Both the position numbers and the translations under genes were made by a program. This document shows positions 8,905-24,985 of a stretch of 29,670 nt of DNA, piece by piece. This DNA comes from a virus. Under the pieces are notes generated by a model. The model was not told the DNA's origin. It did not search any database and saw only the letters and a program-made list of their open reading frames with translations. Position 1 is the stretch's first letter, and every line of letters begins with the position of its first letter. Location of the stretch: IMG/VR virus record IMGVR_UViG_3300045988_131075, positions 1-29,670 of that record; one strand, 5' to 3'.

Positions 8905-8968
8905 TTTAATTTTCCCCTTTCACTTGATACGTTAAGTATAGCAGAACAAAAGGCTTTTGTCAAGCCCT

Positions 8969-9451: not shown

Positions 9452-9515
9452 CCTTTCCTTTTTCTATTATAATAATATCATATTATAATAGAAATGTCAA
9501 TAGAGAATTTTTAAT

Positions 9516-9674
9516 TTACTCTTTTAATTTTTCTAATAGAGCATCAGCACATTCATAGCTGGTACTTCTGCGGTCGCACTCGTTGGACAAAGGACAACAC
9601 GCGCAGTCGTTAAAGGTCTCTACCCAAGCGCGCAACCAGTCAATCAAGCGCAAAGTATTAACTTCCTCATACAT
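9516..9674 (-). CDS. Cys-rich 52-aa protein (MYEEVNTLRLIDWLRAWVETFNDCACCPLSNECDRRSTSYECADALLEKLKE) that is translationally coupled: its ATG sits inside the 3' end of the upstream gene.
   Basis: AAAGGAG 10 nt upstream. An ATGTATGA overlap with the stop of 9667..10014. Confidence 0.4.
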   Translation of the reverse strand: MYEEVNTLRLIDWLRAWVETFNDCACCPLSNECDRRSTSYECADALLEKLKE

Positions 9675-10014
9675 TGTTATCATTCTCCTTTACTCGGACA
9701 AAAAAGACCTTGTTATAGATTTTTGTTGCTTTAAGGTCAATCCAGAAATACACGTTTCCGCATACTCGATAGATTTTACAAGTCTCTCCGCTAACCTTTT
9801 TGACTTCCTCAAATTTCTCTGGTGTTGTAGGGTGGAAAACCGTCAGTTTGAGAAATATGCAATAGAAAGCCAAAGGAACGAAGCCGATAATCATAGCAAT
9901 CCATGCGAGAACATCAGTTAAAGTGTTTTCCCATTCACACTACTCATCGGTAATTGTAGCGAACGCAATACCTACGCAAAACGCGAGAATTAACCAATAC
10001 CATGCAACCATCAT
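9667..10014 (-). CDS. Two-TM membrane protein. It is 115 aa if the in-frame TAG at 9940-9942 is read through; otherwise it is a 24-aa peptide plus the ORF-track 75-aa ORF.
   Basis: The only strong RBS (GGGGG 6 nt before the ATG) is at the upstream start at 10014. The ORF-track start at 9894 has no Shine-Dalgarno site. The two ORFs are in the same frame and separated only by TAG. Promoter TAGACA-17-TAAGAT upstream. Confidence 0.45.
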
Positions 10015-10118
10015 TTTGTTCCCCCTTTATTTGTTGTATACATCTTACCACATTATAGGATTTTTGTCTATTGGCATTTTACACAAAAATTCGTGCGAAA
10101 ATTTGTTGAACTTACCTC

Positions 10119-10240
10119 TTGACAAAAAACTCGGCGCGCCACAATCGTCCGCGCGCCGCCAATTTTATCACATTCAAGGAACTTTGTCAATAGTGAAAGT
10201 AAACAAAAAAAATCACCCAAATTGGGTGATTTTTCATTTA
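10119..10240. promoter_or_regulatory. Boundary module C5. It has a + TTGACA (10119-10124) directly abutting the hairpin cggcgcgc-N11-gcgcgccg (10132-10158), with no + strand -10. A minus promoter follows (-10 rc 10162-10167, -35 rc 10185-10190), then a terminator tcacccaaattgggtga (10213-10229) plus T-run.
   Basis: Compared with C2-C4, about 23 bp between the + -35 and the hairpin are missing. Confidence 0.7.
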
Positions 10241-10414
10241 GTTTCCTACGGCTTCGAGGTCGACGAGAATGGGAACGAGCTTGTCTTCAAGAAGCGCGAC
10301 ACGCTCAATCATTTCATTTGCTGCTGTTCCGCCCGACGGGTATCTCTTCTGAATGCCGTATCGAGCCATTCTGCACACCGTTTCAACAACCTCGCTCAGT
10401 TTCTCATTCTTCAT
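10238..10414 (-). CDS. Small protein of about 58 aa (MKNEKLSEVVETVCRMARYGIQKRYPSGGTAANEMIERVALLEDKLVPILVDLEAVGN).
   Basis: GGAG 9 nt upstream of this ATG. The ORF-track start 5 codons upstream lacks an RBS. Confidence 0.5.
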   Translation of the reverse strand: MKNEKLSEVVETVCRMARYGIQKRYPSGGTAANEMIERVALLEDKLVPILVDLEAVGN

Positions 10415-10526
10415 TTTTCTTATCTCCATTCAATTTATTTTTTGGAAAGGGTGGCGGTTGTTTCAGGCACAACCGCCAAAGCCATAGGAAAGGGGGAGAA
10501 AAAACACGAACAAAAGTTCGGTTTTG

Positions 10527-10775
10527 TCAAGGGATAATCAGTTCCGCATCGTAGACAGGTCGAACCATGCAGGGCGCGCTGAAGCAGTCAAGATTGTAAG
10601 TGTCCAAATTGAGAGCGTTCCATTTTTCTGCGCCGGTATCTTCATCAACCACAGACGCAGTTTTGATGTAATAGACGTTTCCGGAAGCGGGGTCTTGAAA
10701 AATCATACCCTCGAGGAGGTCTTCAAATGCAACCATTTTGTTGCTATGCTTAACAGTAATTTTCATTTCATTCAC
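10527..10775 (-). CDS. Hypothetical protein of 82 aa or slightly shorter, overlapping the upstream gene by ATGA.
   Basis: ORF coupled to 10772..11125. A weak hairpin plus T-run is downstream at about 10500-10520 (minus strand). Confidence 0.5.
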   Translation of the reverse strand: MNEMKITVKHSNKMVAFEDLLEGMIFQDPASGNVYYIKTASVVDEDTGAEKWNALNLDTYNLDCFSAPCMVRPVYDAELIIP

Positions 10776-11125
10776 CCTTTATAATAGTATTTGTAAGCCC
10801 ATTCGATGATTTCATGACTTGTGGTAGTCCATTCCTCTTTGGGGCTATCGAACTTTTCCGCATACTTTTTGATGTAGTTATTATACTCCATGCGTGCGGT
10901 GTCGTATGCTCCAATAGCCACAATTAAGGCGTGCTTCGCTTCTTCGGCATCAGAGACGGCTTTCTTGCGGTCGGGGCAGTCAGGATAGAGGTTAATCACC
11001 CCTACGCGCGTAATGACTTGCCTTGTCTTTTCATAAAGGCGGTCGCGCGTTTCCCATACTTCATAGAGCTCATCATCTGCACGTTTTTCATAAGGGTTGA
11101 AAGGCTTCTTTTTCTTACCGAACAT
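10772..11125 (-). CDS. Hypothetical protein of about 117 aa (MFGKKKKPFNPYEKRADDELYEVWETRDRLYEK...). The ORF-track N-terminal extension runs into the upstream gene and is rejected.
   Basis: AAAAGGAG about 11 nt upstream of the ATG. Overlaps the stop of 11115..11453. Confidence 0.5.
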   Translation of the reverse strand: MFGKKKKPFNPYEKRADDELYEVWETRDRLYEKTRQVITRVGVINLYPDCPDRKKAVSDAEEAKHALIVAIGAYDTARMEYNNYIKKYAEKFDSPKEEWTTTSHEIIEWAYKYYYKG

Positions 11126-11453
11126 TTTTCTTTTTCTCCTTTTCCTGTTTATTCCACATTCTATCAAAGAACGCATTTGCGAGAACACGCTTGTAAAGGT
11201 TGTCAGGCATGGGGCGCTCGCCGTGCTTGTTTCTCCAAATCGCGGTGATTTTATCAATATCCGCGATATAGGCTGTAATGAGTGTGCCGTCCTTGGCGCT
11301 ACGAATAAGAAGAATACCGGTTGTAGTGATAGTGTAGAGAACATCGTCCTCAACGCTGTCGATATACGGTTCGCCGATTCCTACATTATCGTAGATGAAG
11401 AGCAGGCGGTCAATGCGGTCTTGCGTGGCGTGTTTTGACATTTTGATAAGCAT
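11115..11453 (-). CDS. Hypothetical protein of 112 aa.
   Basis: AAGAGG 8 nt upstream of the ATG. Extended -10 TGGTATAAT upstream (11468-11480 rc). Confidence 0.55.
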   Translation of the reverse strand: MLIKMSKHATQDRIDRLLFIYDNVGIGEPYIDSVEDDVLYTITTTGILLIRSAKDGTLITAYIADIDKITAIWRNKHGERPMPDNLYKRVLANAFFDRMWNKQEKEKKKNVR

Positions 11454-11514
11454 TTGTTTTACCTCTTTCTTTTCCTCTTGGATTGATTATATTATACCAT
11501 GCGGAAGGGCTTTT

Positions 11515-11550
11515 TGGAAAAAGAGGGAAAAATTTTCCCTCTTTATTTAT
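11515..11550. terminator. Bidirectional terminator agaggga-aaaatttt-tccctct with a flanking A-run and T-run.
   Basis: Downstream of the minus gene 11547..11819. The hairpin is at 11522-11542. Confidence 0.55.
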
Positions 11551-11819
11551 CCCCAATAGATTGAAAGAATCTTGTCAATGTAGCTGGCTTTATAGCCATA
11601 ATTCTGCATAATATCTTTGCAAGCCTGCTTGACCCTCTTGTCATTTATTGAAGCAAGAGAACATTCGTAAAGTGTTTCTCCCGTTCCGGCCACACGCTCA
11701 ATTTCTGGCATGATGTGGTCTTCAATGAACGCACGCGCAAGGGCATTATTTTTAGCTTGGATTTCTTTGCGAACTTCCTCGGCTTTGCGCGTCATTTCAT
11801 AAGCATATTTAATTTCCAT
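11547..11819 (-). CDS. Hypothetical protein of 90 aa.
   Basis: Promoter TTGACA-17-TACAAT sits in the hairpin gcatataggg/ccctatatgc (11852-11895). RBS AAAGGGAG. Confidence 0.6.
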   Translation of the reverse strand: MEIKYAYEMTRKAEEVRKEIQAKNNALARAFIEDHIMPEIERVAGTGETLYECSLASINDKRVKQACKDIMQNYGYKASYIDKILSIYWG

Positions 11820-11897
11820 GGTGTTTCTCCCTTTCCTTTATTGTATCTTTATTGTAGCATATAGGGCTTGTTTTGTCAAGCCCTATATGCAATTTTT

Positions 11898-12206
11898 TTA
11901 GCAATAGGCGAGATTCCCGCGTGCCCAGCCATATACGCTGATTTGATTGCACGCCTTGCCAATTTCAAGCGCCTGCTTTTTGGTCTGCACCCTCTTGGAC
12001 TTGTCAACATAATAGATGCCGTTCGCAAGCCATACACCGCAGTTTCCGCCGAAGCCCTTAACCGCATTGATAGCTTCGCGGGCGGTCTTGCACTCAACGC
12101 CGTTGGTAGCGACCTGCCAACCGGACTTGTAGTTGACTTTCTTGCCATATTTGAGGGTCATGCCGTCGTTTTCAGCGAGCTTGCGAATAGAACGAATGTT
12201 AATCAT
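11898..12206 (-). CDS. Hypothetical protein of about 102 aa (MINIRSIRKLAENDGMTLKYGKKVNYKSGWQVATNG...), with the start re-assigned.
   Basis: AAAGGGA 7 nt before this ATG. Promoter TAGACA-17-TATACT upstream. The ORF-track 156-aa version starts upstream of that promoter. Confidence 0.5.
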   Translation of the reverse strand: MINIRSIRKLAENDGMTLKYGKKVNYKSGWQVATNGVECKTAREAINAVKGFGGNCGVWLANGIYYVDKSKRVQTKKQALEIGKACNQISVYGWARGNLAYC

Positions 12207-12334
12207 GTTGTTATCCCTTTCCGGTTTGGTAGGTTTTCCTTCCCTTACTGTGATTATAGTATAGCACCGATTCGGGATTCTGTCTATTGACATTATGCAC
12301 AAACTTTCGTCATAAAAATTGTTGAACTTGCCTA

Positions 12335-12455
12335 TTGACACAAAATTCCGGCCGCGCCTGGCGTGCACGGCCGGCCGATTATATCACCAAGTTTTGAAAT
12401 TGTCAATAGGCAAAATATACAAAAAAATCTCCCCATTTTTGGAGAGATTTTTAAT
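12335..12455. promoter_or_regulatory. Boundary module C6. It has a + TTGACA (12335-12340) abutting the hairpin ccggccg-N13-cggccgg (12348-12374) and a minus promoter (-10 rc ATTATA at 12378-12383 with TG, -35 rc at 12401-12406). The terminator is tctcccca-T5-ggagaga (12428-12447).
   Basis: Like C5, it lacks the + strand -10. Confidence 0.7.
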
Positions 12456-12498
12456 TCAAAAAATTTAATTTTAACCATCAACATAAATGATAAGAACA

Positions 12499-12711
12499 TC
12501 ATCTTTGGCTTTCAAACCGCTGACAGGCAAATCCCAGCACCCATTCTTCGCTTACGCCCAAAACATCACCATTCAGAGTCATGCGACCTTTGCGGTCTTT
12601 GAGATAGCGCCCGCAAGTGTTTTCATTTATCACTTCAATGCCGTTCCCCTCATAGAACATCAGTGCGCCTTTTACCAGACCAATCACATTTTTAACCATG
12701 CCCAAAGTCAT
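12499..12711 (-). CDS. Hypothetical protein of about 70 aa (MTLGMVKNVIGLVKGALMFYEGNGIEV...).
   Basis: AAAGAGG 8 nt upstream. Promoter TTGACT-17-TATACT. Ends 45 bp from the C6 terminator. Confidence 0.55.
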   Translation of the reverse strand: MTLGMVKNVIGLVKGALMFYEGNGIEVINENTCGRYLKDRKGRMTLNGDVLGVSEEWVLGFACQRFESQR

Positions 12712-12820
12712 TTTATCAACCTCTTTCGTTTTTAATGTCGTTCCCTTGGAACAATTATAGTATAGCACAAGGTGTAGCAAAAGTCAACTTAAATTTTGGG
12801 ATTACCAATAGATAAAATGT

Positions 12821-12867
12821 ATAAAAATTCGGCAGGATTTTGTGTATCCTGCCGAATTTTTTTTATT
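12821..12867. terminator. Bidirectional terminator ggcaggat-tttgtgt-atcctgcc followed by T8.
   Basis: Stem at 12831-12853, with A/T runs on both sides. Confidence 0.6.
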
Positions 12868-13057
12868 CTTCCCAACTTTCGATGACTTCGCCGGTCATTG
12901 CATCGATGATGTCAACCGAGAGGACGTTGTCTGCGTCCATGACCTTCTGCCCGAGGGCATATGCGTTTTCCTGTCCCGCGACAGACACTTCATAGCGATA
13001 GCGGTTGTTATCGCCAGCCTTGTAATTGTAGTAGTTGACAGAAACAATAAATGACAT
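12863..13057 (-). CDS. Hypothetical protein of 64 aa.
   Basis: RBS AAAGGGGA. Promoter TTGACA-16/17-TATAAT upstream (13090-13130). Confidence 0.6.
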   Translation of the reverse strand: MSFIVSVNYYNYKAGDNNRYRYEVSVAGQENAYALGQKVMDADNVLSVDIIDAMTGEVIESWEE

Positions 13058-13161
13058 TTGGCTTATCCCCTTTCTTTTTATACTCTTATTATACCATAGA
13101 TTCAGGATTTGTCAATAGGTTTTTGAAAAAAGTTTGAAAAAAAATAAGGGCGTTTCCGCCC

Positions 13162-13419
13162 TTATTCTTCATAAATAATAATATTATTTTGTAGCAGTTT
13201 CACGCGAGAATCTTCACAAAAGTGATAGGTAAAACTCACGGAGAGGTGTTTGAGAAATTCGCGTCTCCATGTGCGGGACTTCGGCTCTAATTCAAAGAGA
13301 ATGTAAAGCGTTTCTTCTAACCGGTCGAGGAAGTTTTCAGTGTCCGCGACGTTGAACTTACCCGCGAATTTCGGAATAGGATTAGAAGTCCCAACAGTAA
13401 TAATGTTGTAAGTTGTCAT
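13162..13419 (-). CDS. Hypothetical protein of 85 aa.
   Basis: Conserved leader plus AAGGAG 8 nt upstream. Promoter TTGACA-17-TATAAT (13440-13475 rc). Confidence 0.6.
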   Translation of the reverse strand: MTTYNIITVGTSNPIPKFAGKFNVADTENFLDRLEETLYILFELEPKSRTWRREFLKHLSVSFTYHFCEDSRVKLLQNNIIIYEE

Positions 13420-13506
13420 GGAAAAATCTCCTTTTCATTTGATGCTTTTATTATACATGATAGTGTGGAACTTGTCAATACTTAAAATAGAAAAAAGAGA
13501 AGTTTT

Positions 13507-13611
13507 TCAACTTCTCTTTTTCAGTTTCTTTTCTGCCCATTCAATGAGCGCACCCACGGCGATTGTACCGGTATAAATGAAAAGTAAAACTAAACCATCA
13601 TGTAGACTCAT
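13507..13611 (-). CDS. Alternative model, gene 2 of 2: a 34-aa single-TM peptide (MSLHDGLVLLFIYTGTIAVGALIEWAEKKLKKRS).
   Basis: GGAGG 9 nt upstream of the ATG. Same frame and stop as the ORF-track 76-aa ORF 13507..13737. Confidence 0.4.
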   Translation of the reverse strand: MSLHDGLVLLFIYTGTIAVGALIEWAEKKLKKRS

Positions 13612-13612
13612 T

Positions 13613-13741
13613 TTAATATTCCTCCACATACTCTGTAAAAACAAGCTCCCAGTCAGGGCCAAGATCCGGAGCTTTGCAGTATCGCGACTGTCGAATGTCA
13701 TGCTCATTAGTGATTTTGTTGATAAACTCGAATTCATACAT
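13613..13741 (-). CDS. Alternative model, gene 1 of 2: a 42-aa acidic protein (MYEFEFINKITNEHDIRQSRYCKAPDLGPDWELVFTEYVEEY).
   Basis: AAAGGAGA about 10 nt upstream of this ATG (14 nt for the ORF-track ATG in another frame). Its TAA is followed after 1 nt by the ATG of gene 2. Confidence 0.4.
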   Translation of the reverse strand: MYEFEFINKITNEHDIRQSRYCKAPDLGPDWELVFTEYVEEY

Positions 13742-13830
13742 TTTTTATTATCTCCTTTTCTTTACTGTACCAATAGTATAGCAGATAACAGGGTATTTGT
13801 CAATACCATTTATAAAAAAATGTACGAGGT

Positions 13831-14127
13831 TTAATCCTCGTACATTTCCATTAACGATTTGATTTTTTCGATTGTATTTTCAATTTCTTCTACATAGTCG
13901 GCCTGTTCCTCACTTGCGCGCATTGCCTGTTCATATGCGTCATAGATAGCTTCACACTGTTCGCGGGTGTAGTCTTCTTCTGGAGCGTGTTCCATGGTGA
14001 CGACTGCCGTCCAAGCGAGCGTTTCCTTATCGTCAAGGTCATCGGCTTTTTCCGTGGCAGTGGTAAGCTCATGTTCGAGGCGCGTCTTTTCGAGCGAGAG
14101 GGTCTTGAGAAAATCCTTGTTAGTCAT
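13831..14127 (-). CDS. Acidic coiled-coil protein of about 98 aa (MTNKDFLKTLSLEKTRLEHELTTATEKADDLDDKE...).
   Basis: The ORF-track start is the ATG inside the conserved leader (caaATGaaaaggaga). The real start is 8 codons downstream, after that RBS. Confidence 0.6.
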   Translation of the reverse strand: MTNKDFLKTLSLEKTRLEHELTTATEKADDLDDKETLAWTAVVTMEHAPEEDYTREQCEAIYDAYEQAMRASEEQADYVEEIENTIEKIKSLMEMYED

Positions 14128-14328
14128 TGCGGTGTATCTCCTTTTCATTTGATGCCTTTATCATACCACTTCTGGACTGAATGTCAATAGGTTTTTGAAA
14201 AAAATATTTATTCATCAGGGCTGTATAAATATTCATGTATAAATATTCATTTTCGGGTGTATAAAGGCGACTGGCATAATGCACAAAATGGTTTCAAAAT
14301 TTTTGTGCAATATAACTATTGCAAAACT

Positions 14329-14355
14329 CGGCGCGCTGCGACCCACAGCGCGCCG
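14329..14355. promoter_or_regulatory. Orphan copy (C7) of the module GC hairpin, cggcgcgc-N11-gcgcgccg. It has no associated promoter or terminator.
   Basis: Same stem as C5, with a different loop. Flanked by AT-rich tandem repeats. Confidence 0.55.
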
Positions 14356-14382
14356 GCCAAATGCATATGTATGATTATTCAT

Positions 14383-14440
14383 GTATATTCATTGTATATT
14401 CATTGTATATTCATTGTATATTCATTGTATATTTATTCAT
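14383..14440. repeat. Tandem 11-bp repeat gtatattcatt, 4 perfect copies plus a variant. A second pair of 14-bp repeats, tgtataaatattca x2, is at 14222-14249.
   Basis: Direct reading. Confidence 0.8.
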
Positions 14441-14450
14441 ACATAATATG

Positions 14451-14484
14451 CAAAAATAGAGAGAGACTTAATAAGCCTCTCTCC
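14451..14484 (-). terminator. Intrinsic terminator for the minus-strand operon: hairpin gagagag-N11-ctctctc, followed on the minus strand by a T-run.
   Basis: The stop codon of 14468..14830 lies in the hairpin loop. Confidence 0.55.
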
Positions 14485-14830
14485 ACACCTTGATTATTTC
14501 ATCATCTGCTATATCATCTGTGTCATTGTCGTTTATCCACAAAAGCAGAAAATCATTATCATCAATGGTCATATTCTCAACTTCCCATTGGTTGCCACGT
14601 TCGTCCAGTAGCGTGATGGTGTTACCATTTCGGGAAACGACCTCTGCACCGATAAAGCGTATGCTTCCTCTCTCTGTGCCAGCGCCACACCATTCATCTA
14701 ATGCGGTGAGGTCGTAGGACTGGGGCGCTTCCTCACAGGCTTCCGCGGTTGTGTGGTCGTGAAATCCGAAGAAAGACACGGAGAGAATGATGGCAATGGC
14801 CATGGTGATGATTTTGGAAACGTTTTTCAT
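14468..14830 (-). CDS. Secreted or membrane-anchored protein of 120 aa with an N-terminal signal/TM segment (MKNVSKIITMAIAIILSVSFFGF).
   Basis: AAGAGG 9 nt upstream of the ATG. Hydrophobic N-terminus followed by an acidic domain. Confidence 0.6.
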   Translation of the reverse strand: MKNVSKIITMAIAIILSVSFFGFHDHTTAEACEEAPQSYDLTALDEWCGAGTERGSIRFIGAEVVSRNGNTITLLDERGNQWEVENMTIDDNDFLLLWINDNDTDDIADDEIIKVWREAY

Positions 14831-14852
14831 TTTGTTTTACCTCTTTCTTACT

Positions 14853-14996
14853 TTATAGGTTAGTAGCGATAGTGACAACAGCAATAAGCATGAGCGTGCT
14901 TGAGACAGCTTTGCCTACATTCTTGCTATCTATGGCATAGACAAAATTATATGCGCTTATAGCGGTAAGCACAATAATAGCGGCAATGATAGACAT
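14853..14996 (-). CDS. 47-aa membrane peptide (MSIIAAIIVLTAISAYNFVYAIDSKNVGKAVSSTLMLIAVVTIATNL).
   Basis: GGGGAG 8 nt upstream of the ATG. Lies between two larger genes with about 25-bp spacers. Confidence 0.45.
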   Translation of the reverse strand: MSIIAAIIVLTAISAYNFVYAIDSKNVGKAVSSTLMLIAVVTIATNL

Positions 14997-15026
14997 GGCA
15001 TATGCTCCCCTCTTTGAGCGAGTGGG

Positions 15027-15500
15027 TTAAACCCACTCGCTGAATAGCTCACTGATGAAGTCATCGTGGACGTCATCAGGCAGTTGGTCGATGGTACACT
15101 CATAGGTGCTTACCACGGTAAGCGATGAGCCATTTTCAAGGTTCTCACGCTCAAACTTATCCCGTTCGCCAGATGAAAGAAAAAATGCGGTATAATCGTA
15201 AGTGTCTTCTCCATCATTGATGGAATAATCCACTACCTTAAAGCGCGTCTTGTTCCAGAGGTTCGCTATGATGGAAAGATCCATGGCCAGCTCTTCCTCG
15301 TGGCGAACAGCTTCGAGAGACGCCTTATACTTGCGCCATGCGGCTACCGTAAAGTCTCTTATGCCGCACCCGATAAGACAATGGTATTCCTCTAAGTCTT
15401 TGATAACCAGTTTGCGTCCCTCGCGCACCATTTCCCAAGCGTTTTCTGCCATTGCGTTGATGGTGACAGCATCATATTTATGCAAGCCCTGAATTTTCAT
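15027..15500 (-). CDS. Hypothetical protein of 157 aa.
   Basis: Long ORF in the operon and no overlapping alternative. Confidence 0.55.
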   Translation of the reverse strand: MKIQGLHKYDAVTINAMAENAWEMVREGRKLVIKDLEEYHCLIGCGIRDFTVAAWRKYKASLEAVRHEEELAMDLSIIANLWNKTRFKVVDYSINDGEDTYDYTAFFLSSGERDKFERENLENGSSLTVVSTYECTIDQLPDDVHDDFISELFSEWV

Positions 15501-15581
15501 TGTGTAGCCCTTCCCGCGCTTTTTGCGCTATCGTGTTATATGTAGGTATGTTCCCCTTGTGGGGAGTGAGGGCTTACGCCC

Positions 15582-15875
15582 TCACTTTGCAATCTTTGCA
15601 GTAACGGAAGCCGCACGCGGCGCGCCAGTCTTCTTGTACTTTTCAAAACACTCCGCATAGAGTTTCGGAGCTTTGTTGCGGAACATTACTGTATCGAGTG
15701 TTTCAGTAGCCTTGCCACCCTTGCCGACGATAACAGTAAACTTATTGTAAGTAAAAGTAACGCTTTCGCCGTCGGCTTCCTCGCGGGCTTCCGCCTTGAG
15801 CAATTCTAACTGTTCCTTGAGCGCATCTATCTGCGCGGAAAGCTCACACATCTTTTTAATTTTGTTGTTCGTCAT
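15582..15875 (-). CDS. Hypothetical protein of 97 aa with an N-terminal coiled coil (LSAQIDALKEQLELLKAEAREE).
   Basis: ORF. A weaker promoter (TTGTAT-17-TACCAT) upstream at about 15905-15945. Confidence 0.5.
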   Translation of the reverse strand: MTNNKIKKMCELSAQIDALKEQLELLKAEAREEADGESVTFTYNKFTVIVGKGGKATETLDTVMFRNKAPKLYAECFEKYKKTGAPRAASVTAKIAK

Positions 15876-15959
15876 TTTTGAATCCTCGTTTCATGTAATT
15901 TACCGTTCGGTGTTTCGCCGTTCAGCATGGTTACATGGTAGCAGATTCAGCCACGGAAT

Positions 15960-16280
15960 ACAATTGACGGATTGCACAAAGATTTGTTTTATACGGGGCG
16001 GGCTTTTGTGCAATCTACCGCCGGGCGGCACCCTTACATCATACCTTTGCATTTTTATTCATTCAAGAATGAATAAAACCTGCATAGAGGGGGGGTGTAT
16101 TTCGGGAAAAATAAATTTTTATTTATCGTTTTTTCTTTTGCCTGGTCAAAACGCAATCTAAATCAATTTTCAATTTCAGATTACGAAGAATAATTTAAAT
16201 TTATCATAATCAATTTTCAATTTCAAAATACGGTTTAAAACAATAAATCAATTTTCGATTTCAAATTACGACTTCTTTTT
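15960..16280. promoter_or_regulatory. Non-coding region between the two genome modules. It holds a perfect 11-bp inverted repeat gattgcacaaa/tttgtgcaatc (15970-15980 and 16005-16015), a 22-bp palindrome ttattcattc-aa-gaatgaataa (16055-16076) and a palindrome aaaaataaatttttattt. Three iterons aatcaattttc(a/g)atttcaNaWtacg lie at about 16160, 16209 and 16246.
   Basis: Direct reading. No ORF with an RBS apart from the small gene at 16266-16400. Confidence 0.6.
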
Positions 16281-16400
16281 TCTACCTCTTTTAGGCTTCT
16301 CACCCCACATAAGAGTGTATAATCCAGAAGTAGCAGAGTAAGTAGCCTTCTGCTGATACTTTTTAGCGACTGCCTTCAAGGGACTGAGTGGTTTCCGCAT
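16266..16400 (-). CDS. 44-aa basic peptide (MRKPLSPLKAVAKKYQQKATYSATSGLYTLMWGEKPKRGRKKKS).
   Basis: GGAGG 9 nt upstream of the ATG. TAA stop. Its 3' end overlaps the third iteron. Confidence 0.4.
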   Translation of the reverse strand: MRKPLSPLKAVAKKYQQKATYSATSGLYTLMWGEKPKRGRKKKS

Positions 16401-16424
16401 TTAATTTTTCCTCCATATATTCGA

Positions 16425-16745
16425 TTAATTTATCTTTATATTTACAACTATCAATATATCTATTAATAATTTTTCCATTAAGTGTTCTAATACATATTTG
16501 TATTTATTCAACTGATATTCTTCTTGTTCTTCTTTGGTGCTTAATTGAGCCTTTTCCGCGTCTGATAAAGGTCTGTAAGTAATCGTTCTTGACCCATTAT
16601 CCTTTTGCTCAATACGTATTGTTTTAAATAATTTCCAATCTCTTACAAAAGGGTCTTTATCTCTTGTAGTGTTAAAATATTCTTGTTCTAATCTAAATAT
16701 TACCGCGTCTATCCCTCTTACTTCAAAAGGCTGGTTCCATCCCAT
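16425..16745 (-). CDS. Hypothetical protein of about 106 aa (MGWNQPFEVRGIDAVIFRLEQEYFNTTRDKDPFVRDWKLF...).
   Basis: GGGAGG 9 nt before this ATG, inside the 3' end of the upstream gene. The ORF-track N-terminal extension has no RBS. Confidence 0.5.
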   Translation of the reverse strand: MGWNQPFEVRGIDAVIFRLEQEYFNTTRDKDPFVRDWKLFKTIRIEQKDNGSRTITYRPLSDAEKAQLSTKEEQEEYQLNKYKYVLEHLMEKLLIDILIVVNIKIN

Positions 16746-17115
16746 CTTCAATATCCTCCCATTCAAATGTTCCATCATCTAATTCATATACAAATGCTTG
16801 TTTATAAAATGATGAAACAATTCCATCATTTGCGATTCCTTTTGGACTATTTTTCACATCATGAAAACAATTATAAACAATTAATCCTTGCGTTTCATAT
16901 CGTGAAAAATCTACTGCCCTTCCCTCAAAATCATAATTATAAAATATGTTTAATAATAGCATACACTCATATTGTGCGATTGGCCATTTATTTAATTCTT
17001 TTTGCTAATTTACCATTTTTTGATATAATACCAAAAAGGCTTTTCTATATAACCATAAAAAAAGAAGTGATGCTACTAACGCACAACTCAATAATACAAT
17101 AAAAATAGTTTCCAT
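16723..17115 (-). CDS. N-terminally membrane-anchored protein. It is about 130 aa if the in-frame TAG at 17005-17007 is read as sense; otherwise it is a 36-aa TM peptide plus the ORF-track 79-aa ORF.
   Basis: GGAG 5 nt before the ATG at 17115. The ORF-track start at 16962 has no RBS. The two ORFs share a frame and are separated only by TAG. Confidence 0.45.
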
Positions 17116-17264
17116 AAATACTCCTTTTCTTTTTTCTTTTTTTTTTCTTATAATAATAATAAAATAAAAATAAAGAAATGTCAAATCGTAGCGTGATTGG
17201 GCAAAAGTTATTTGTTTTGTTAAAAAAATTTTTAAATATAAAAAGAAAAAATTTTAAATAAAAC

Positions 17265-17293
17265 TTGACAAAAAAAATTTTTTCGAGTATAAT
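17265..17293 (+). promoter_or_regulatory. Consensus promoter of the late (structural) operon: TTGACA(17265-17270)-17-TATAAT(17288-17293). GGAGG lies 6 nt before the ATG at 17318.
   Basis: Direct reading. An extremely AT-rich UP-like region lies upstream (17100-17260). Confidence 0.75.
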
Positions 17294-17317
17294 ATAAATA
17301 TAGACTGGAGGTAAAAA

Positions 17318-18373
17318 ATGATAAAACTTGATTATTCTTTACAAACTCCAGAAGAAAGAAATCAATTAGTCGAACAAATTTTGGCTGATAATCCAGATCC
17401 GCCTGAAAAGTATTTAGAAATTTTAGCAGACTATTTGGTTCTTTGTATGGAGAAACAAGAAAAAAAGGAGAAAAAATTATTAACTGATAATCGTATGGCT
17501 ACAGTTAATAAGCGTGAGACTTCTTTTGAAGGTCTTGTTTCCCAACTCGAAAATGGCGAAGATGGAATTTATAATTTAATTACAGATAATAGAAATACAA
17601 TATTTCAACCACATATTACAATTACAAAAAAAGATTTAGAAGAGATACCAAGTTTAAATTAGTTAAGAGAAGCCATTAATGTTTGGGAGGCTAAATTAAA
17701 AGTAACAGAAGGTAAAGATGCTTTTGTTATTAAAAAGGCTCTTATTGAAATGCGTAAAGATTAGTATGTTATGAAAAATGCTTATCGTCGTCCAATAGTG
17801 CCTACAAAATTAACCAGATCAAAGTCTTATATTCCATTAGATGATAAAACATTTATTTTTGATGATGATGGTTTTCCCATTCCTGATGGAATTAGTTTAT
17901 TAAGACCTGAAATATGTTCTGCGGTTTTATGTAATTATTCCCGATTAAAACAAGATAGTTGGGGCGAATATGATAAAGATTTATGGTATTTAATGGAGGA
18001 TTTTGATAAGCTTTGTGATAAAGCGTTAGCTAATTATCCTCTTTATGATAGAATCGTTGAATATAAAATTGATGGTTTACAAAATATTGACATTCAAGAG
18101 AAAATACAAATGGAATTTGGTATTAAGCACAGCCTTGAATATATTTCAAGTTTATGGCGTAATAAAATTCCAAAATTAATTGCTTCGACTGCGGAAGATG
18201 AATATTTAGATAATTATTATTTAAATGTTGAAAAAGGTAAATATAAAAAATGTAGTCGTTGTGGTAAAATAAAATTAGCTCATAATAAATATTTTAGTAA
18301 AAATAAAACAAGTAAAGATGGCTTTTATAGTATTTGTAAAAGTTGTCGAAATTCTAAGGTCAAAAAATCTTAA
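17318..18373 (+). CDS. First late gene, about 351 aa with 2 in-frame TAG codons (at 17660 and 17762). It has a C-terminal Zn-ribbon, CSRCG...AHNKY...CKSCRN, possibly an HNH-like nuclease or a regulator.
   Basis: ORF-track ORFs 17318..17662 and 17771..18373 are in the same frame and are separated only by TAG codons. TAA stop. Confidence 0.55.
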
Positions 18374-18422: not shown

Positions 18423-19610
18423 ATGGCTGAAACATATTATTGCGAAAAATGTAATCGTACAATGAATAGCACGGAATTTTATTCGTCTAATAATTTAGAA
18501 AAATATCCTAATGATGGTAAATTTCCTGTGTGCAAAAAATGTATGACAATGCACGTCGATAATTGGAATCCAGATACTTATTTATGGATTTTACAAGAAG
18601 CGGATGTTCCTTATGTTCCAGATGAATGGAATAAATTAATGGAAAAATATGGGCGCGATCCGCAGTCTATGACTGGTATGACAATTCTTGGACGTTATTT
18701 GTCAAAAATGAAACTCAAATAGTTTAAAGATTATCGTTGGAAAGATACAGAATTTTTATAGTAGATGGCGAATAATAAATTAGAGCAAACTATGAAGCGT
18801 CAAGGATATGATGCTCAATAGATTGCAACCGCTATTGAAAAAAGTTCTATTGCTATTCCAGGAGGAGAATTAAAAGAACCGGTTTATGCTCCACCACCTA
18901 ATGCCCCTACGGAAGATTATTTCGCACAATAGAGTGGTAAAGTGGAACAAGAATTAGACTTAACTGATGAAGACCGCACTTACTTAAGACTTAAATGGGG
19001 TAAAACTTATAAACCTGAAGAATGGGTTAAGCTTGAATAGTTATATGAAGAAATGATGGCTTCTTATGATATTCAAGGCGCCGGACATAAAGATACGCTA
19101 AAATTAATATGTAAGACATCTTTAAAGGCAAATCAATTGATCGATATTGGTGATATTGAAGGTTTCCAAAAGATGAGCAAAGTATACGATAGCTTAATGA
19201 AGTCTGGTAAATTTACTGCTGCTCAAAACAAAGCAGAATCAGGTGAATTTGTTGATTCAATTGGTGAATTAATTGAATTGTGTGAAAAAGAAGGATATAT
19301 TGAAAGATATTATGTTGAATAGCCACATGATAAAGTGGATTTAACTATTCAAGATATGCAACGTTATACTCGTACTCTTATTGAAGATGAAACTAATATT
19401 AGCACAATGGTAGAAAAAGCTTTACGCGAAAATGCTAAAGAAGATGAAGAGAAAGCAAAGAACGCGGAAAGCGATATCGTTGATGATGCTGATTTAAGTA
19501 TTGAAGAACTTGAAAAAACTATTAAAGATAGTGATTACGCGGATTTTGAGGAATTTAAAGAATAGGAGTCCGCGCAAGATAATGAGTTCTTATAGAGTTT
19601 GGATAAATAA
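18423..19610 (+). CDS. Late protein of about 395 aa with about 8 in-frame TAG codons and an N-terminal CxxC...CxxC Zn-ribbon. Its position immediately upstream of terL suggests the small terminase subunit; this is speculative.
   Basis: ORF-track pieces 18423..18722, 19053..19322 and 19335..19565 share one frame. Only TAG separates them. Ends with TAA at 19608-19610. Confidence 0.55.
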
Positions 19611-21349
19611 TGGCATTACAAGATTTGTTATAGTTAAGTGATAGCCGTAGAAAAATAGGTCTATCACCTGAGCGAGTAGAAGCGGTAATGCCTACTATCC
19701 GCAAATACGTTGCCTTTTGGAGAGAATATCCTGATTTATTTGTAGATTTTATGGTGCGAGGAAGACGCACTGAAATAAAAGATGGAGAATTTAATTTTTA
19801 TTTTTATTAGAGAGTATTTCTCCGTTCTGTTATGCGTTATTAGTATGTTTACGCGGTTTTCCCTCGTGCTTATTCTAAATCATTCTTGTCTGTTATGGCA
19901 TTAATGATTAGATGTATTTTATATCCTGGTGCGCACTTGTTCGTTACTTCTGGAGGTAAAGAGCAAGGTGCTAGTATTCTTCATGATAAAGTTCAAGAAA
20001 TATGTGAACTTGTTCCAAGCTTTAATCGAGAAATTGATTGGAGTCGAGGAAAAACTCTTGAAGGAAAAGATAAAGTTAGATATGTGTTTAAAAATGGTTC
20101 AGTTTTGGATAACCTCGCAGCTCGTGAAAGCACTCGTGGTCAGCGTCGTCATGGTGGATTAATGGAAGAATGTGTCGGTATTGATGATACTATTCTTCGT
20201 GAAGTTATTATTCCTGTTATGGCAATTTCTCGTAGAGCTAAAGATGGCACTACCAATGAACAAGAGCCATTAAATAAATCACAAATTTATATTACTACTG
20301 CTGGTTATAAGGGCACATTCCCTTATGATAGACTTATTGGTTTCTTAGTTCGTATGGTGACTTAGCCCGATCGTTGTATGGTATTAGGCGGAACATGGCG
20401 AACTCCTGTTGCAGTAGGATTACAAAGTAAAACATTTATTACTGACCAAAAGAATGAAGGAACTTATAATGAAGCTTCATTCGAACGTGAATATGAATCT
20501 AAGTGGTCAGGAACTGTTGAGGATGCTTTCTTTAATGGAGAGCATTTTGATAGAAATAGAAAACTATTATAGCCTGAATATGAAGCTTCTGGGCGCGCGG
20601 GCGCACAAGCTTATTATGTGCTTTCTGTAGATGTAGGTCGTAAAGGATGCGATTCAGTAGTTTGTGTATTTAAAGTAACACCACAAGCTCAAGGTCCAGC
20701 TATTAAATCATTAGTAAATATGTATACTATGTCAGATGACCATTTTGAAGATTAGGCTATTAAATTAAAGAAATTATTTTATAAATATAAAGCTAAAACT
20801 TTAGTTATAGATGGTAATGGTTTAGGTATTGGACTTTTAGATTATATGGTAAAATCTCAAAATGATGAAGATGGTGAATTTTTACCTGATTTTGGTGTTG
20901 AGAATGATGATGATGGATATTATAAAAAATATCGCACACCAAATACTCAATTTGATGCTATGTATGTTATTAAAGCAAATGCTCCAATAAATACTGAATG
21001 TCATGCTAATGCTCAGACTCAATTGCAAGCGGGTAAAGTAAAATTCTTAATAGATGAGAGAACAGCTAAAGAAAAATTATTAGCTACTCAAAAAGGTTCA
21101 AAAATGACTTCTGAACAAAGGGCAGATTATTTAAAACCATTTACTTTAACCTCCATATTAAAAGAAGAAATGATGAATTTACGCGAAGAAAATGAAGGTA
21201 TTAATATTATCCTAAAACAGGCAAATCGCGGAATTCGTAAAGATAAATTTTCGGCTTTTGAATATGGATTATATTATTTAAAACTTGAAGAAGATAAAAA
21301 GAAAAAACGTAAAAAGTTTAATGCGGCTGATTGGTGCTTTTTAAATTAA
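19610..21349 (+). CDS. terL: Terminase large subunit, about 579 aa with at least 6 in-frame TAG codons.
   Basis: ATPase motifs PRAYSKSF (Walker A-like) and GLMEECVGID (Walker B). Nuclease motifs YVLSVDVGRKGCDSVVCVFK and LVIDGNGLGIG. The pieces 19886..20365, 20378..20572 and 20846..21349 are in the same frame. The start overlaps the upstream TAA (TAATG). Confidence 0.8.
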
Positions 21350-21361
21350 GGAGGGTGGAAA

Positions 21362-21718
21362 ATGCGTGCTTCAAGAGGAGAAATTAAAATTGAAGAAATC
21401 TTAGAAGAAGCAGGACTACCTTTTAAAATGGAATATATCTTTCCAGATTTAAAAAGCCCAAGCGGGCGTCCGCTTCGTTTTGATTTTGTTATATTTGATG
21501 ATGATGGAAAAATTGATTTCATTATTGAGTATTAGGGAAAATAGCATTATGAAGCCAGTTCTAAATTTGGTGGAAAACGCGGTTTATACCAATAGCAATA
21601 TAATGATAATCAAAAAAGACGTTTTTGCGCTTTACATGATTTTAGATTAATAGAGATTCCATATACCGACGAAAACCTTATTTCTTATGATTATATAATG
21701 AAATTAGCAGGTTATTAA
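21362..21718 (+). CDS. DUF559/Vsr-like (PD-(D/E)xK) endonuclease of about 118 aa with 3 in-frame TAG codons.
   Basis: RFDFVIFDDDGKIDFIIEYQGKQHYE matches the hDF...hIEhDGxQH signature. GGAGG 7 nt before the ATG. TAA stop. Confidence 0.45.
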
Positions 21719-21731
21719 AGGAGGTGGAACT

Positions 21732-23381
21732 TTGGATACGCAAGATCGTAATGATTAGATTCACGCTAAAGGTTTTGATATTTATAATAGTCGTTATGAA
21801 TATAATTATAATGACACTATGGATTATGCCAATAGAAAAATAAAAGTTGGCACAAAAACTTTAGATGATGCTATTTTAAAACTTGGTGATTATAGTAAGA
21901 TTAGATACCCAGGTCAAACTCGTATTATCACGAAACCTGATGTGCTTCGCGCACTAGCAGAAAGAGATTTAAATGCTTTGCGATATATTTCTAATCTTTA
22001 TTATGATATAAGTGGTGTATATCAACGAGTTTGTAATTATGTTGCTTTTTTATACCGCTATGATTGGTATATTGCAGCTGAAACTTATGATGATAATGTA
22101 AAAGAAGAAAAAGTTTTAAAAGATTTTTATAGAATGTTGAATTATTTTGATAATAGTTATATTAAAAAGATTTGCGGAGATATTGCTTTACAAGTCGTTA
22201 AAAATGGATGCTATTATGGATATATAGTTCCTTCAGAGAAAAATCTAATTTTACAAGAATTGCCAGTTAGATATTGTAGAACACGTTATAGTGTAAATAA
22301 TACCCCAGTTGTCGAATTTGATATGCGATTTTTTGATACTTTTAGAGATATGAATTACCGTTTAAAAGTATTAAAATTATTCCCAGAAGAATTTGCTAAA
22401 GGTTATGTTTTATATAAGCAAGGAAAACTTGCTTTAGATGATGCGGTTGGATGCTAGCATACTGGTAGTTGGTATGTTCTTGAGCCAGAAAATTGTATTA
22501 AATTTAATATTAATAATAGTGATGTTCCTATTTTTGTAAATTCCATTCCTACTATTATGGATTTAGATGCAGCGCAAGATCTTGACCGCAAGAAACAAAT
22601 GTAGAAGTTGCTTAAAATTTTAGTCCAAAAACTCCCAATGGATAAAAATGGTGATTTGATATTTGATGTTGATGAAGCCAGAGATATCCATAATAATGCC
22701 GTTTAGATGTTATAGAGGGCTATTGGAGTAGATGTTTTAACTACATTTACTGATGTAGATTCTATTGATATGTCTGATAAAAATACTACTACAACGACAG
22801 ATGATTTAGCTAAAGTTGAACGTAGTGTTTATAATTCATTAGGTATTTCATAGAATTTATTTAATACTGATGGTAATATGGCTTTAGAAAAATCAGTGTT
22901 AAATGATGAATCTACAATAAGAAGTTTAATTTTATAGTTTAATATATTCTTTAATAGAATTATTGAAAAAAAGAGTAGTAATAAGAAATATAATTTTAGA
23001 TTTTATTTATTAGAAACTACTTAGAATAATTATCAAACACTTTCTAAAATGTATAAAGAACAAGCGCAAATGGGACAATCAAAGCTATTGTCTTAGATTG
23101 CTCTTGGACATTCATAGAGTTTTATTCTTAATGCAGCTCATTTTGAAAATGAGATTTTACATTTAAGTGAAATTATGATTCCTCCTCTTATGAGTTCTAC
23201 TATGGGTAGTGAAGATATTTTGGGTTTAAAAGATTCATCATCTAATAATAAAACTCAAAATAATTCAGGAAGTTCAGGTTCTGGAACTGCTAAAACTTCT
23301 AATGGCGAGGCAGGACGTCCGGAAAAACCTGATGATTAGAAAAGTGAAAAAACTATTCAAAATAAAGAAGCAATGAAATAA
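21732..23381 (+). CDS. Portal protein, about 549 aa with about 12 in-frame TAG codons. It probably starts at TTG, 7 nt after an AAAGGAGG.
   Basis: One continuous frame from 21732 to the TAA at 23379, with no TAA or TGA inside. The position after terL and the size fit a portal. The ORF-track sees only 21819..22457. Confidence 0.55.
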
Positions 23382-23390
23382 GGAGGATTT

Positions 23391-24968
23391 ATGAAACATA
23401 CAAGTATTAAATTAAATACACCTTGTGAGTTTATAAATATAACTCCTGTAAATCCTTTAATTTCTAAATGCCAAATTAAGGTTTGTTATGTAGATGATAA
23501 GCCTAATCGTAATAAAAGCGTAATTACTAAAGATGTAGCGACTGAGATGGCTAATAGTCTTCCAGGCAGTCCTATTGTTGGCTTTTTTAACGAAAATACC
23601 GAAGATTTTGAAGAACATAATAGGATAATTGAATTATCTAACGGCGAATTTAGAATGAGAGATAATACTCGCCCTTATGGTTTTGTTGATCTTGGAGCTA
23701 AAGTTTGGTTTTAGAAATTTTTGGATGATGGTGTTGCTGAACGTGAGTATTTAATGACTGAAGGTTATTTGTGGACTGGTTAGTATCCTGAATGTAAACG
23801 TGTAGTTGAGAAAGGGAATAATCATTCTATGGAGCTTGATGAAAAAACATTAAATGCTACGTGGGCAAAAGATAGTAATGGAAAGCCTTAGTTTTTTATT
23901 ATAAATAAGGCAATTATTTCTAAACTTTGTATTTTGGGAGAAGAAAATGAACCTTGTTTCGAAGGCTCCCAAATCAATGTGAATTTTTCATTCGATGATG
24001 GTTTTAAGAACACTTTGTTCTCCATGATGAATGAACTTAAAGAATTTATGAAAGAAGGAGGAGCCAAAGTGTTTACACAATACGCTGTTAATATTGGCGA
24101 CAATTTGTGGAATTCTCTTTATTCTTATATTGAGAATAAGTATCCTGTCGAACCAAAGAATTATTGTTCTGTTTATCGCATTGAAGGTGTTTGCGAAGAT
24201 GGTGAACAAAAGTTTGCTGTTTTGAAGAATAAACAGGATGAAAAATACTATCGTATGGATTTTTCTCTTGAAGCAGAGAATTTCGTTCCTTCTGATACTT
24301 TGATTGAAGTAACTGATTATGCTCCTGCGGCAGAGCCTCAGTTTGCTCTTAATGCTGTAGAAGAATTTGAAAATGAGTATGCTTCAAAAAAGAAAGCAGA
24401 AGAGGACAAAAATAATAAATCAAATAATCCTGACGGTGAAAATAAATCAGAGGGCAATGATAATAAAAAGAACCCTGATAATGGAGAACCCTCTAATAAG
24501 TCTGATAAAGGCGACAACGGTGAGAATGATGATGATAAAAAGAAAAAGAAAAATTATTCTCTTGAGGACGTTGTTGAATATACTGAACTTAAAGCTCAGT
24601 ATGATGAATTACAGACTAAATTCGCAGCTCTTGAAACTGAAAATAATAGCTTGAAAGAGCAAATTGCTCCACTTGCTGAATTTAAAAATGCTGCTGAGAA
24701 GAAAGATAAAGAAGATATGATTGCTAAATTCTATATGCTTTCTGATGAAGATAAGGCTGATGTTGTTGAAAATATTGATAAATATTCTCTTGATGATATT
24801 GAAGCTAAATTATCTGTTATTTGTGTTCGCAACAAGGTGAGTTTCGACCTTGACGAAAATAATAAGCCCAATGGTGCTACTACTTTTAATTTGAACGATA
24901 ATGGTTCAGAAGATGATGATATGCCCGCTTGGGTGAAGGCGGCTTTTGCTACCGCCAACAAAAATTAA
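23391..24968 (+). CDS. Scaffold-like protein of about 525 aa with 3 in-frame TAG codons. It has a globular N-terminal domain, then a coiled-coil and a highly charged K/D/E/N-rich C-terminal half.
   Basis: ORF-track pieces 23391..23714 and 23934..24968 are in the same frame. GGAGG RBS. Position between portal and capsid genes. Confidence 0.5.
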
Positions 24969-24985
24969 TAAGGAGGACATACTAA

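Follow-up and report, generated by a model that had tools for sequence, protein, structure and literature searches.

An abrupt composition break in a TAG-recoded gut phage as the probable border of two codon regimes split by expression class

Here, we propose that the abrupt composition break near 16 kb in the IMG/VR virus record IMGVR_UViG_3300045988_131075 (positions 1 to 29,670, the whole of which is called the window below) is probably the border of two codon regimes within one genuine gut phage genome of about 190 kb, the genes being split between them by expression class. This is based on composition and codon statistics, a conserved architecture, the reading of the stop codon TAG as glutamine (Gln), promoters, and a suppressor tRNA found on the same contigs. 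The phage is very common in human gut metagenomes, its exact capsid protein being indexed in 1,068 blocks of the collection, with longest contigs of 186-200 kb.

The sharp G+C drop near 16 kb described in the initial annotation is borne out. The best two-segment maximum-likelihood split of the window lies at 16,033 (log-likelihood gain 164), with a G+C content (GC) of 0.425 to the left and 0.323 to the right. Sliding-window GC is 0.37-0.48 across 0-16 kb and 0.27-0.41 across 16.5-29.7 kb; in windows of 200 nucleotides (nt) it falls from 0.42-0.51 at 15.0-16.1 kb to 0.24 at 16.1-16.3 kb and 0.16 at 17.1-17.3 kb, with a range of 0.16-0.35 over 16.1-17.4 kb. The gap between the early-type genes on the left and the late-type genes on the right sits almost wholly at the third codon position: GC at positions one, two and three (GC1, GC2, GC3) is 0.49, 0.34 and 0.52 in the 34 early genes and 0.455, 0.32 and 0.215 in the late genes, and per-gene GC3 is 0.51 +/- 0.09 vs 0.22 +/- 0.06 (Mann-Whitney p = 8e-7). 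At four-fold sites, the early genes use T 0.32, C 0.33, G 0.20 and A 0.15, and the late genes T 0.605, C 0.11, G 0.06 and A 0.23. Two-fold pyrimidine codons go from C-ending to T-ending (the GAC share of Asp codons is 0.59 early and 0.08 late), and intergenic G+C is 0.378 in the early array vs 0.30.

We draw a distinction between this break, at about 16.03-16.15 kb, and the strand switch at 17.12-17.32 kb, since about 1.2 kb separate the two boundaries and the first plus-strand gene begins only at 17,318. The initial annotation had described the sequence from about 16.3 kb onwards as A+T-rich and plus-strand; the first half of that description stands, and the second does not, since 16,266-17,115 holds three minus-strand genes (GC3 0.18-0.45, with an in-frame TAG in at least two). 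As these genes are A+T-rich and TAG-bearing although they lie on the strand of the array, composition is not set by strand; it tracks gene class rather than strand or position. The features from the array to the strand switch are as follows.

155-16,033, minus strand: early-type array of about 34 small genes (47-258 amino acids, aa), most with a sigma-A-type promoter each; hairpins and terminators separate the genes.
15,582-15,875, minus strand: last array gene before the break (97 aa, phrog_6244, GC3 0.55), found in 9% of relatives.
15,876-16,155: leader upstream of the last array gene, with the change point (16,033) and the return of between-strain homology (15,884-16,091).
16,156-16,270: three boundary direct repeats, core AATCAATTTTCRATTTCA, copies within 16,161-16,263 at a spacing of 47 and 38 nt.
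16,266-16,400, minus strand: very basic 44-aa protein MRKPLSPLKAVAKKYQQKATYSATSGLYTLMWGEKPKRGRKKKS, last gene of a conserved A+T-rich minus-strand operon.
16,425-16,826, minus strand: A+T-rich gene of 131-134 aa, GC3 0.29, in-frame TAG at 16,779-16,781.
16,723-17,115, minus strand: 130-aa protein with an N-terminal membrane helix, GC3 0.18, one in-frame TAG at 17,005-17,007.
17,116-17,317: divergent promoter region and strand switch, GC 0.16, the most A+T-rich stretch.
17,184-17,156, minus strand: promoter TTGACA-17-TATTAT, facing the three-gene minus-strand operon.
17,265-17,293, plus strand: promoter TTGACA-17-TATAAT, followed by a GGAGG ribosome-binding site and the 351-aa gene.

The phage reads TAG as Gln. 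The initial annotation had called TAG a sense codon on the right side, and this agrees with the 0-12 in-frame TAGs per late gene and with the alignment of the two TAGs of the first late gene to Gln in unrecoded relatives. Reading TAG as sense yields long plus-strand open reading frames (351, 395, 579, 520, 525, 305 and 368 aa among others), and in a close relative it raises coding density from 0.55 under genetic code 11 to 0.97 under code 15. The 351-aa gene carries its two TAGs (17,660-17,662 and 17,762-17,764) at invariant Gln positions, both aligning with Gln in the unrecoded relatives L076, L108, L113 and L117 (L numbers denote contigs and loci of relatives); in other recoded lineages the gene has 1-7 TAGs at partly different positions. 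The Gln codons of the late genes are CAA 84, CAG 28 and TAG 45 (TAG share 0.29). The 72 Gln codons of the array are CAA 20, CAG 52 and TAG 0; its 34 genes hold no in-frame TAG and end in 20 TAA, 14 TGA and 0 TAG stops, so that their proteins are identical under codes 11 and 15, and the TAG trinucleotide on the array coding strand is at 0.33 of expectation. The late part of the window consists of the following genes.

17,318-18,373, plus strand: sigma-factor-like protein (351 aa) heading the late operon, zinc ribbon at the C-terminus, GC3 0.15.
18,423-29,645, plus strand: late structural operon, all stops TAA, 0-12 in-frame TAGs per gene, GC3 0.15-0.34, made up of the next ten entries.
18,423-19,610, plus strand: YonG-like protein.
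19,610-21,349, plus strand: large terminase.
21,362-21,718, plus strand: 118-aa protein.
21,819-23,381, plus strand: portal.
23,391-24,968, plus strand: YonD-like protein.
24,986-25,903, plus strand: 305-aa protein.
25,921-27,027, plus strand: major capsid protein (YonB-like).
27,114-27,707, plus strand: 197-aa protein.
27,727-28,299, plus strand: 190-aa protein.
28,581-29,645, plus strand: 354-aa protein.

Composition and TAG use fall into tiers by gene class. Early genes have a GC3 of 0.52, a C share of 0.47 among C/T-ending two-fold codons and no TAG; for middle genes the same three measures are 0.40, 0.32 and 0, for abundant late virion proteins 0.305, 0.24 and 0, and for the other late genes 0.206, 0.10 and 91. 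Across 73 genes, median GC3 is 0.19 in TAG-bearing vs 0.45 in TAG-free genes (Mann-Whitney p = 1e-9), and TAG density correlates with GC3 at a Spearman coefficient of -0.71. The TAG-free late genes are those for the capsid, the 197-aa protein and, downstream in relatives, the tail tube; a single TAG occurs in the gene for the 305-aa protein in the window, and none in that of the relative L004. In L004, these four genes have a GC3 of 0.305 vs 0.206 for the remaining late genes, from which they differ in C- vs T-ending codons (Fisher test, p = 5e-11) and in CAG vs CAA (p = 3e-9). At four-fold sites the abundant late proteins favour T/C endings (T 0.70, G 0.02). Beyond the far end of the array, relatives carry 2-5 opposite-strand genes (the four of L029 have a GC3 of 0.07-0.26 and 2-5 TAGs each) and then a compact, TAG-free “middle” block with a GC3 of 0.3-0.5.

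Promoter content follows the same division. The initial annotation had given the left side codons ending in G or C, minus-strand genes and promoter cassettes, all of which we find (GC3 0.52, about 34 small genes, 26 strong sites). The array carries 26 minus-strand TTGACA-N16-18-TATAAT sites (at least 11 of 12 positions), of which 23 have an extended TG. The late part has one coding-strand site of at least 11/12 and two 11/12 minus-strand matches in the portal gene region, a total equal to the shuffle expectation. The plus-strand promoter at 17,265-17,293 keeps its full consensus at 11 of 19 loci across the family, with a -10 element in the same place at most others, and the GGAGG site before the 351-aa gene is conserved across the family.

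The junction is present in many public assemblies. In the collection, 1,223 blocks are indexed with the exact 44-aa protein, which lies on ten contigs in the ENA (55-397 kb, from different projects, with assemblers including MEGAHIT and SPAdes, and scaffolds). These share the order of late operon, genes for the 130-, 131- and 44-aa proteins and small-gene array, with the junction mostly deep inside the contig and a GC change point 100-370 nt past the 44-aa gene (0.32 vs 0.41-0.43 on either side). When IMG/VR was scanned with the first late protein, 475 related stretches came up, with complete flanks at 49 loci, and about 35 IMG/VR contigs have the junction. Of the full-flank loci, those of close relatives have the change point 1.15-1.25 kb upstream of the first late gene, and most of the distant ones show the same architecture. 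Since more than 40 independent contigs share both the junction and the change point, an assembly artefact is excluded.

The two-composition layout, which the initial annotation expected of related phages if the junction were genuine, is found in close relatives, in most of the distant ones and in phAss-1 (OQ749652). The latter, a TAG-recoded gut phage whose capsid protein is 50% identical, is the closest named genome; the Enterococcus phages EF1 and VRE9 follow, with capsids 39-40% identical. As far as the published account goes, phAss-1 (proposed genus Phassvirus) uses TAG as Gln and has 36 tRNAs, including three suppressors (PMC10607447; OQ749652). Its late genes are in the same order as here. 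It differs in that the genome is 136 kb with an overall G+C of 0.445, the A+T-rich, TAG-rich class being a minority of it. GC along phAss-1 ranges over 0.31-0.56, with a GC3 of 0.14-0.27 in TAG-rich genes and 0.45-0.7 in the others, and the four-fold C share goes from 0.44 in small early genes through 0.27-0.30 in the replication and capsid blocks to 0.12 in TAG-rich genes. The Results section of the phAss-1 paper makes no mention of compositional heterogeneity (PMC10607447). Orthologues of the window phage and phAss-1 are weakly correlated in GC3 (rho 0.47, p = 0.06) and modestly in TAG density (rho 0.58, p = 0.02).

Among relatives whose first late protein is 71-84% identical, recoded lineages have a late GC3 of 0.18-0.25 and an early GC3 of 0.41-0.55, and the layout is common to relatives in which that product is just 71-78% identical. 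No gap is seen in recoded L124/L125, where the left flank may not be the array. The unrecoded L076, L113 and L108/L117 have an early GC3 excess of 0.12-0.18, so that within the family the gap is largest in recoded lineages. Two more distant unrecoded phages with SPbeta-like features from Firmicutes, EF1 (MF001358) and the cultured Enterocloster phage PMBT24 (OQ326496), are near-uniform in composition (GC3 0.19-0.30). EF1 also has a minus-strand small-gene array pointing away from the late operon, with a homologue of the 258-aa array gene, but its array has almost no GC3 excess (0.24 vs 0.19). PMBT24 has a similar type of late operon and a GC3 of 0.30 in small early genes and 0.21-0.22 in the remainder; its abundant proteins are shifted to C-ending codons, with Gln encoded by 0 CAA and 36 CAG.

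Codon counts within the family show how TAG entered the late genes. In unrecoded relatives CAA and CAG are about equal there (about 57-79 each), and in recoded ones there are about 26 CAG and about 37 TAG: the loss of CAG is about as large as the gain of TAG, and TAG has replaced CAG. In the TAG-bearing late genes of the window lineage TAG/(TAG+CAG) is 0.79-0.85 vs 0.82-0.85 for four-fold T/(T+C), and in phAss-1 the two values are 0.79 and 0.80; TAG lags in less fully recoded lineages. As the TAG:CAG ratio matches four-fold T:C, the first base of the YAG Gln codon acts as a neutral pyrimidine site.

In light of these results, what might hold the two regimes apart? We suggest that a strong A+T-directed baseline would set the composition of weakly constrained late genes, in which TAG:CAG is near four-fold T:C and CAG could drift to TAG harmlessly, given the suppressor. 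Genes needing immediate translation by the unmodified host apparatus would be held host-compatible and TAG-free, and genes made in very large amounts would likewise exclude TAG and retain more C/G-ending codons. Early and middle transcription would continue into the phage tRNA region, including the CUA suppressor, and only afterwards would TAG-bearing genes become translatable, among them the sigma-like factor behind its consensus host promoter. We infer the timing classes, the selection behind the high GC3 of the early genes and the translational gating from the statistics and architecture given above. Of the options in the initial annotation, selection linked to the recoding comes closest to this evidence, although a weaker early/late gap already exists in unrecoded relatives. 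Host average codon matching, GC-biased conversion and gene flux are all possible causes of the array's GC3 of 0.52.

Several points weigh against this proposal. That the early codons are “host-compatible” is an assumption, and the “early” label is drawn from promoters, gene size and code neutrality. A GC3 gap of 30 points exceeds the usual effect of translational selection, and the early signature is a general GC shift (four-fold G 0.20; intergenic G+C 0.378 vs 0.30) rather than one of classical optimal codons. The array is also a hot spot of recombination, with which GC-biased conversion or gene flux would agree no less well. PMBT24 infects a host of about 49% GC, and the small early genes of that phage nevertheless have a GC3 of no more than 0.30. 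Finally, the tRNA set of phAss-1 is more balanced, with no lean to A/T-ending codons.

Polarised four-fold substitution counts in late genes gave an apparent AT-to-GC excess (e.g. 26 vs 5), which was discarded as uninformative because the outgroup is saturated and T-rich, biasing parsimony to exactly that result. A search for the host through the capsid gene in GTDB genomes gave only metagenome bins with inconsistent labels (L035-L047: Mollicutes, Clostridium, Lachnospiraceae, Erysipelotrichaceae, Muribaculaceae and others), and no host was assigned; these contigs in species-representative GTDB genomes are most likely mis-binned phage DNA.

A stronger version of the proposal, which we hold only tentatively, is that the two codon dialects form a layered translational timer. 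Late genes would be locked both by TAG and by T/A-ending codons needing phage tRNAs, including A34 tRNAs, and the late transcription factor would itself be TAG-gated behind a host-type promoter. The window has no tRNA genes. Walking along related contigs places the tRNA region about 30 kb past the far end of the array, in the direction of early/middle transcription, and three junction-bearing contigs (IMG/VR ..118370, ..110853 and ..126669) proved in a pattern scan to carry a tRNA with anticodon CTA. The tRNAs of four- and six-codon families include Thr-AGT, Leu-AAG, Ile-TAT, Leu-TAG, Val-TAC, Ala-TGC, Arg-TCT and Pro-TGG; the tRNAs seen in these families fit A/T-ending codons, save for Leu-CAA and Ser-GCT. 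This set fits a dependence of the late genes on phage tRNAs, without proving it.

The tRNA region has further features of its own. The loci L136 20566-20640, L178 3243-3330 and L182 7726-7805 cover the unusual A34 tRNAs (Thr-AGT, Leu-AAG) and, in one strain, a tRNA whose anticodon TCA would read TGA, although none of the genes examined uses TGA in frame. A tRNA-like gene that is A+T-rich and has an anticodon loop of 6 nt (L136 19345-19415, L140 20140-20210, L144 19341-19411) shows a strain-variable anticodon region (ATTTAA vs CTTCAA); ARAGORN makes no assignment and suggests Lys/Stop or Glu/SeC.

Among the alternatives, a mosaic origin is the strongest, though we consider it unlikely: array cassettes would have been imported or exchanged from a G+C-richer pool (phages of the same host, or the host), with turnover outpacing amelioration. 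To the right of 16.0 kb, 23 of 23 relatives align fully at about 95% identity; array alignment across relatives is patchy, with a nucleotide identity of 86-94%, and 13.5-16.0 kb is present in merely 12-28% of 22 relatives. Homology to two relatives restarts at 15,884 and 16,091, and the break doubles as the edge of a hypervariable region. The homology breakpoints relative to L029 and L031 lie at or beside repeated promoter cassettes, the repeat families D1-D6 and D16 containing array promoters and G+C-rich hairpins. Array GC3 is also more heterogeneous (0.34-0.70) than that of late genes, and an AbrB-like N-terminus has homologues in many unrelated Firmicutes phages.

Other observations run counter to import. 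More conserved array genes have a higher GC3 (presence across strains vs GC3, rho = 0.42, p = 0.014), the reverse of amelioration. Homologues of the 258-aa array gene (3751-4527) with 29-38% identity occur in the equivalent early regions of phAss-1 and Enterococcus phages, and the GC3 of this gene varies by lineage (0.61 here, 0.66 in phAss-1, 0.26 in EF1). Together, these two results mean that a high GC3 is no mark of recent import. Most array proteins have no bacterial or Pfam relatives, the tiering extends to middle genes and abundant late proteins outside the array, and the architecture is common to relatives 71-78% identical in the first late product. Thus, the mosaicism suggested in the initial annotation survives as hypervariability of the array between strains; a different evolutionary origin of the early and late modules is unsupported, as relatives and phAss-1 share the layout and composition tracks gene class. 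A comparison of each half with database phages by megablast against 50,697 phage records gave no matches.

Rather less probable still is a regional, non-selective bias, in which GC-biased gene conversion or local mutation and repair lifts the G+C of coding and non-coding array DNA. That the array is a recombination hot spot would suit it, as would the enrichment of G-ending codons, C-ending codons and intergenic DNA alike. It leaves unexplained, however, the absence of TAG from the array both as sense codon and as stop (with the trinucleotide at 0.33 of expectation), the intermediate middle genes in a compact conserved block, and the TAG-free, slightly GC3-richer genes for abundant virion proteins within the conserved late operon, and the GC3 excess is almost nil in EF1, whose array is laid out in the same way.

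A strand or replication asymmetry, in which the switch would mirror an origin near 17 kb where the coding or leading strand changes, is very improbable. GC skew does flip sign, with a cumulative minimum at about 16.5-17.5 kb, where the DNA is most A+T-rich. The GC-content break is nevertheless 1.2 kb off the strand switch, the three minus-strand genes beside the array and the opposite-strand, TAG-bearing genes at its far end are all A+T-rich, and skew shifts the balance of G to C and of A to T but leaves G+C content as it is. Least of all do we credit a chimeric assembly of two unrelated sequences, the other option in the initial annotation, for which nothing speaks except the sharpness of the break and the fact that some assemblies end in the array at cassettes or at the tandem repeat in 1-154, and which is refuted by a junction interior to 55-397 kb contigs from many samples and assemblers with a conserved change point, and by a near-identical contig 99.3-100% identical over the junction, the sole difference being the copy number of the boundary repeat (6 vs 3).

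That repeat lies directly downstream of the 44-aa gene and overlaps the gene end. Its core AATCAATTTTCRATTTCA has 4 matches vs 0.36 expected, with three copies in the window, six in the near-identical contig (L011 9002-9340) and 1-4 in other strains; the variation may be a genuine variable-number repeat or assembly collapse. Folding of 15,990-16,280 gave an A+T-rich hairpin at about 16,047-16,072 and no canonical terminator. The 44-aa protein (16,266-16,400) had no family match in profile searches, and in relatives of the 78% class its place at the boundary is taken by a 47-aa homologue. The gene at 16,425-16,826 would encode 117 aa if its start were placed after the TAG and is called at 131 aa in relatives; that at 16,723-17,115 is called at 130 aa in all relatives, the L004 version having no TAG. 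In the unrecoded relatives L076 (8468-9307, minus strand) and L113 (8474-9331, minus strand) the A+T-rich minus-strand operon is longer and of lineage-variable gene content, and by eye it holds a 279-285 aa FolD-like protein and an AbrB/SpoVT-like protein.

Pfam is nearly silent for both halves of the window. PHROG profiles identify the large terminase, the portal and a “sigma factor” family protein, with full-length matches for terminase, portal and others. Contigs encoding the identical capsid carry the Pfam families YonG_N, YonD_N, YonB, YomW, YomV_2nd and YomU_Tube in the same order in 20 relatives, with a tape-measure protein of about 2,750 aa after the Yon/Yom genes in public contigs, and tblastn to Bacillus and Staphylococcus phages of SPbeta-like type gives 22-27% identity. 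The structural module is of the SPbeta-like siphovirus type. The window has no YonO-type single-subunit RNA polymerase, and the sigma-like protein heads its late operon. In PMBT24, the late operon head (L133 9612-12107) is a gene annotated as “RNA-dependent RNA polymerase”, which we take to be YonO-like, followed by a histone-like DNA-binding protein.

Within the array, the paralogous genes at 2255-2632 and 4668-5099 (minus strand; 125 and 143 aa, 74-89% nucleotide identity) have the highest GC3 of the window (0.70 and 0.69), and one of them has a weak Mnd1 helix-turn-helix match. Perfect plus-strand TTGACA-17-TATAAT sites inside repeated cassettes at 3343-3371, 5546-5574 and 8058-8086 oppose the direction of the array genes and could promote antisense or small RNAs. 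Rfam gave only a sub-threshold RybB-like match for the whole window (8,384-8,453), which we regard as chance. A 17-nt tandem repeat, AAAATTGCGAGAGTGTG, is present in about seven copies at the array far end (31-154), where or near which several public assemblies stop, and an 11-nt tandem repeat, TATTCATTGTA, in 5.7 copies with 96% matches in an intergenic part of the hypervariable region (14376-14437).

In addition to lifting the worry of misassembly from a widespread gut phage of about 190 kb, our findings give a testable picture in which stop-codon recoding is nested in a wider partition of codon usage. Where late genes are weakly constrained, TAG acts as a neutral pyrimidine alternative to CAG; it is excluded from early, middle and abundant-protein genes. 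Should the tiering be general, expression classes and code blocks of uncultured phages could be read cheaply from the GC3 profile, and gene callers would be helped with code boundaries that lie off strand switches. If the codon dialects do act as a timer, the break would be the visible sign of a switch in translation regime, findable in other recoded phages by the same profile.

Hyperplastic early regions with promoter and stem-loop cassettes are known from the PeSL of T4-type phages and the host-takeover module of SPO1. The array resembles them in its many small early genes with strong host-type promoters and hairpins and, against L029 and L031, in homology breakpoints at or beside the cassettes; the phage lineage is unrelated. 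To our knowledge, such regions have not been described as differing in composition from the rest of their genomes.

Recoded phages with a dual-coded early block and a TAG-recoded (code 15) late block have been described, as have recoded modules scattered over the genome in the large Jade, Sapphire, Agate and Lak clades, and low G+C has been linked to recoding at the whole-genome level only (10.1101/2021.08.26.457843; 10.1101/2022.06.29.495998; 10.64898/2026.08.21.746148). With such code-block phages the present one shares the limitation of TAG to structural and late genes, a TAG-neutral early block, a TAG-free capsid gene, a tRNA(CUA) elsewhere in the genome and the scatter of recoded modules, and its array is “dual-coded” in the Mgcod sense (10.1101/2022.06.29.495998). 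It differs in that the code switch is not at the strand switch, TAG genes being on both strands beside the array, and in that the recoded strand does not carry the suppressor at its 5' end. In the literature on recoded phages searched, we found no mention of a 30-point GC3 gap graded by gene or expression class, of the agreement of TAG:CAG with four-fold T:C, or of a code and composition boundary offset from the strand switch.

Temporal classes within a phage differ in synonymous codon use, at least in the account given in PMC5683454; relative to that account, what sets this phage apart is how large the gap is (GC3 0.52 vs 0.21) and that it is coupled to a stop-codon reassignment. Thus, the architecture was already known from other recoded phages, and the strong compositional tiering presented here is a modest, testable addition to it.

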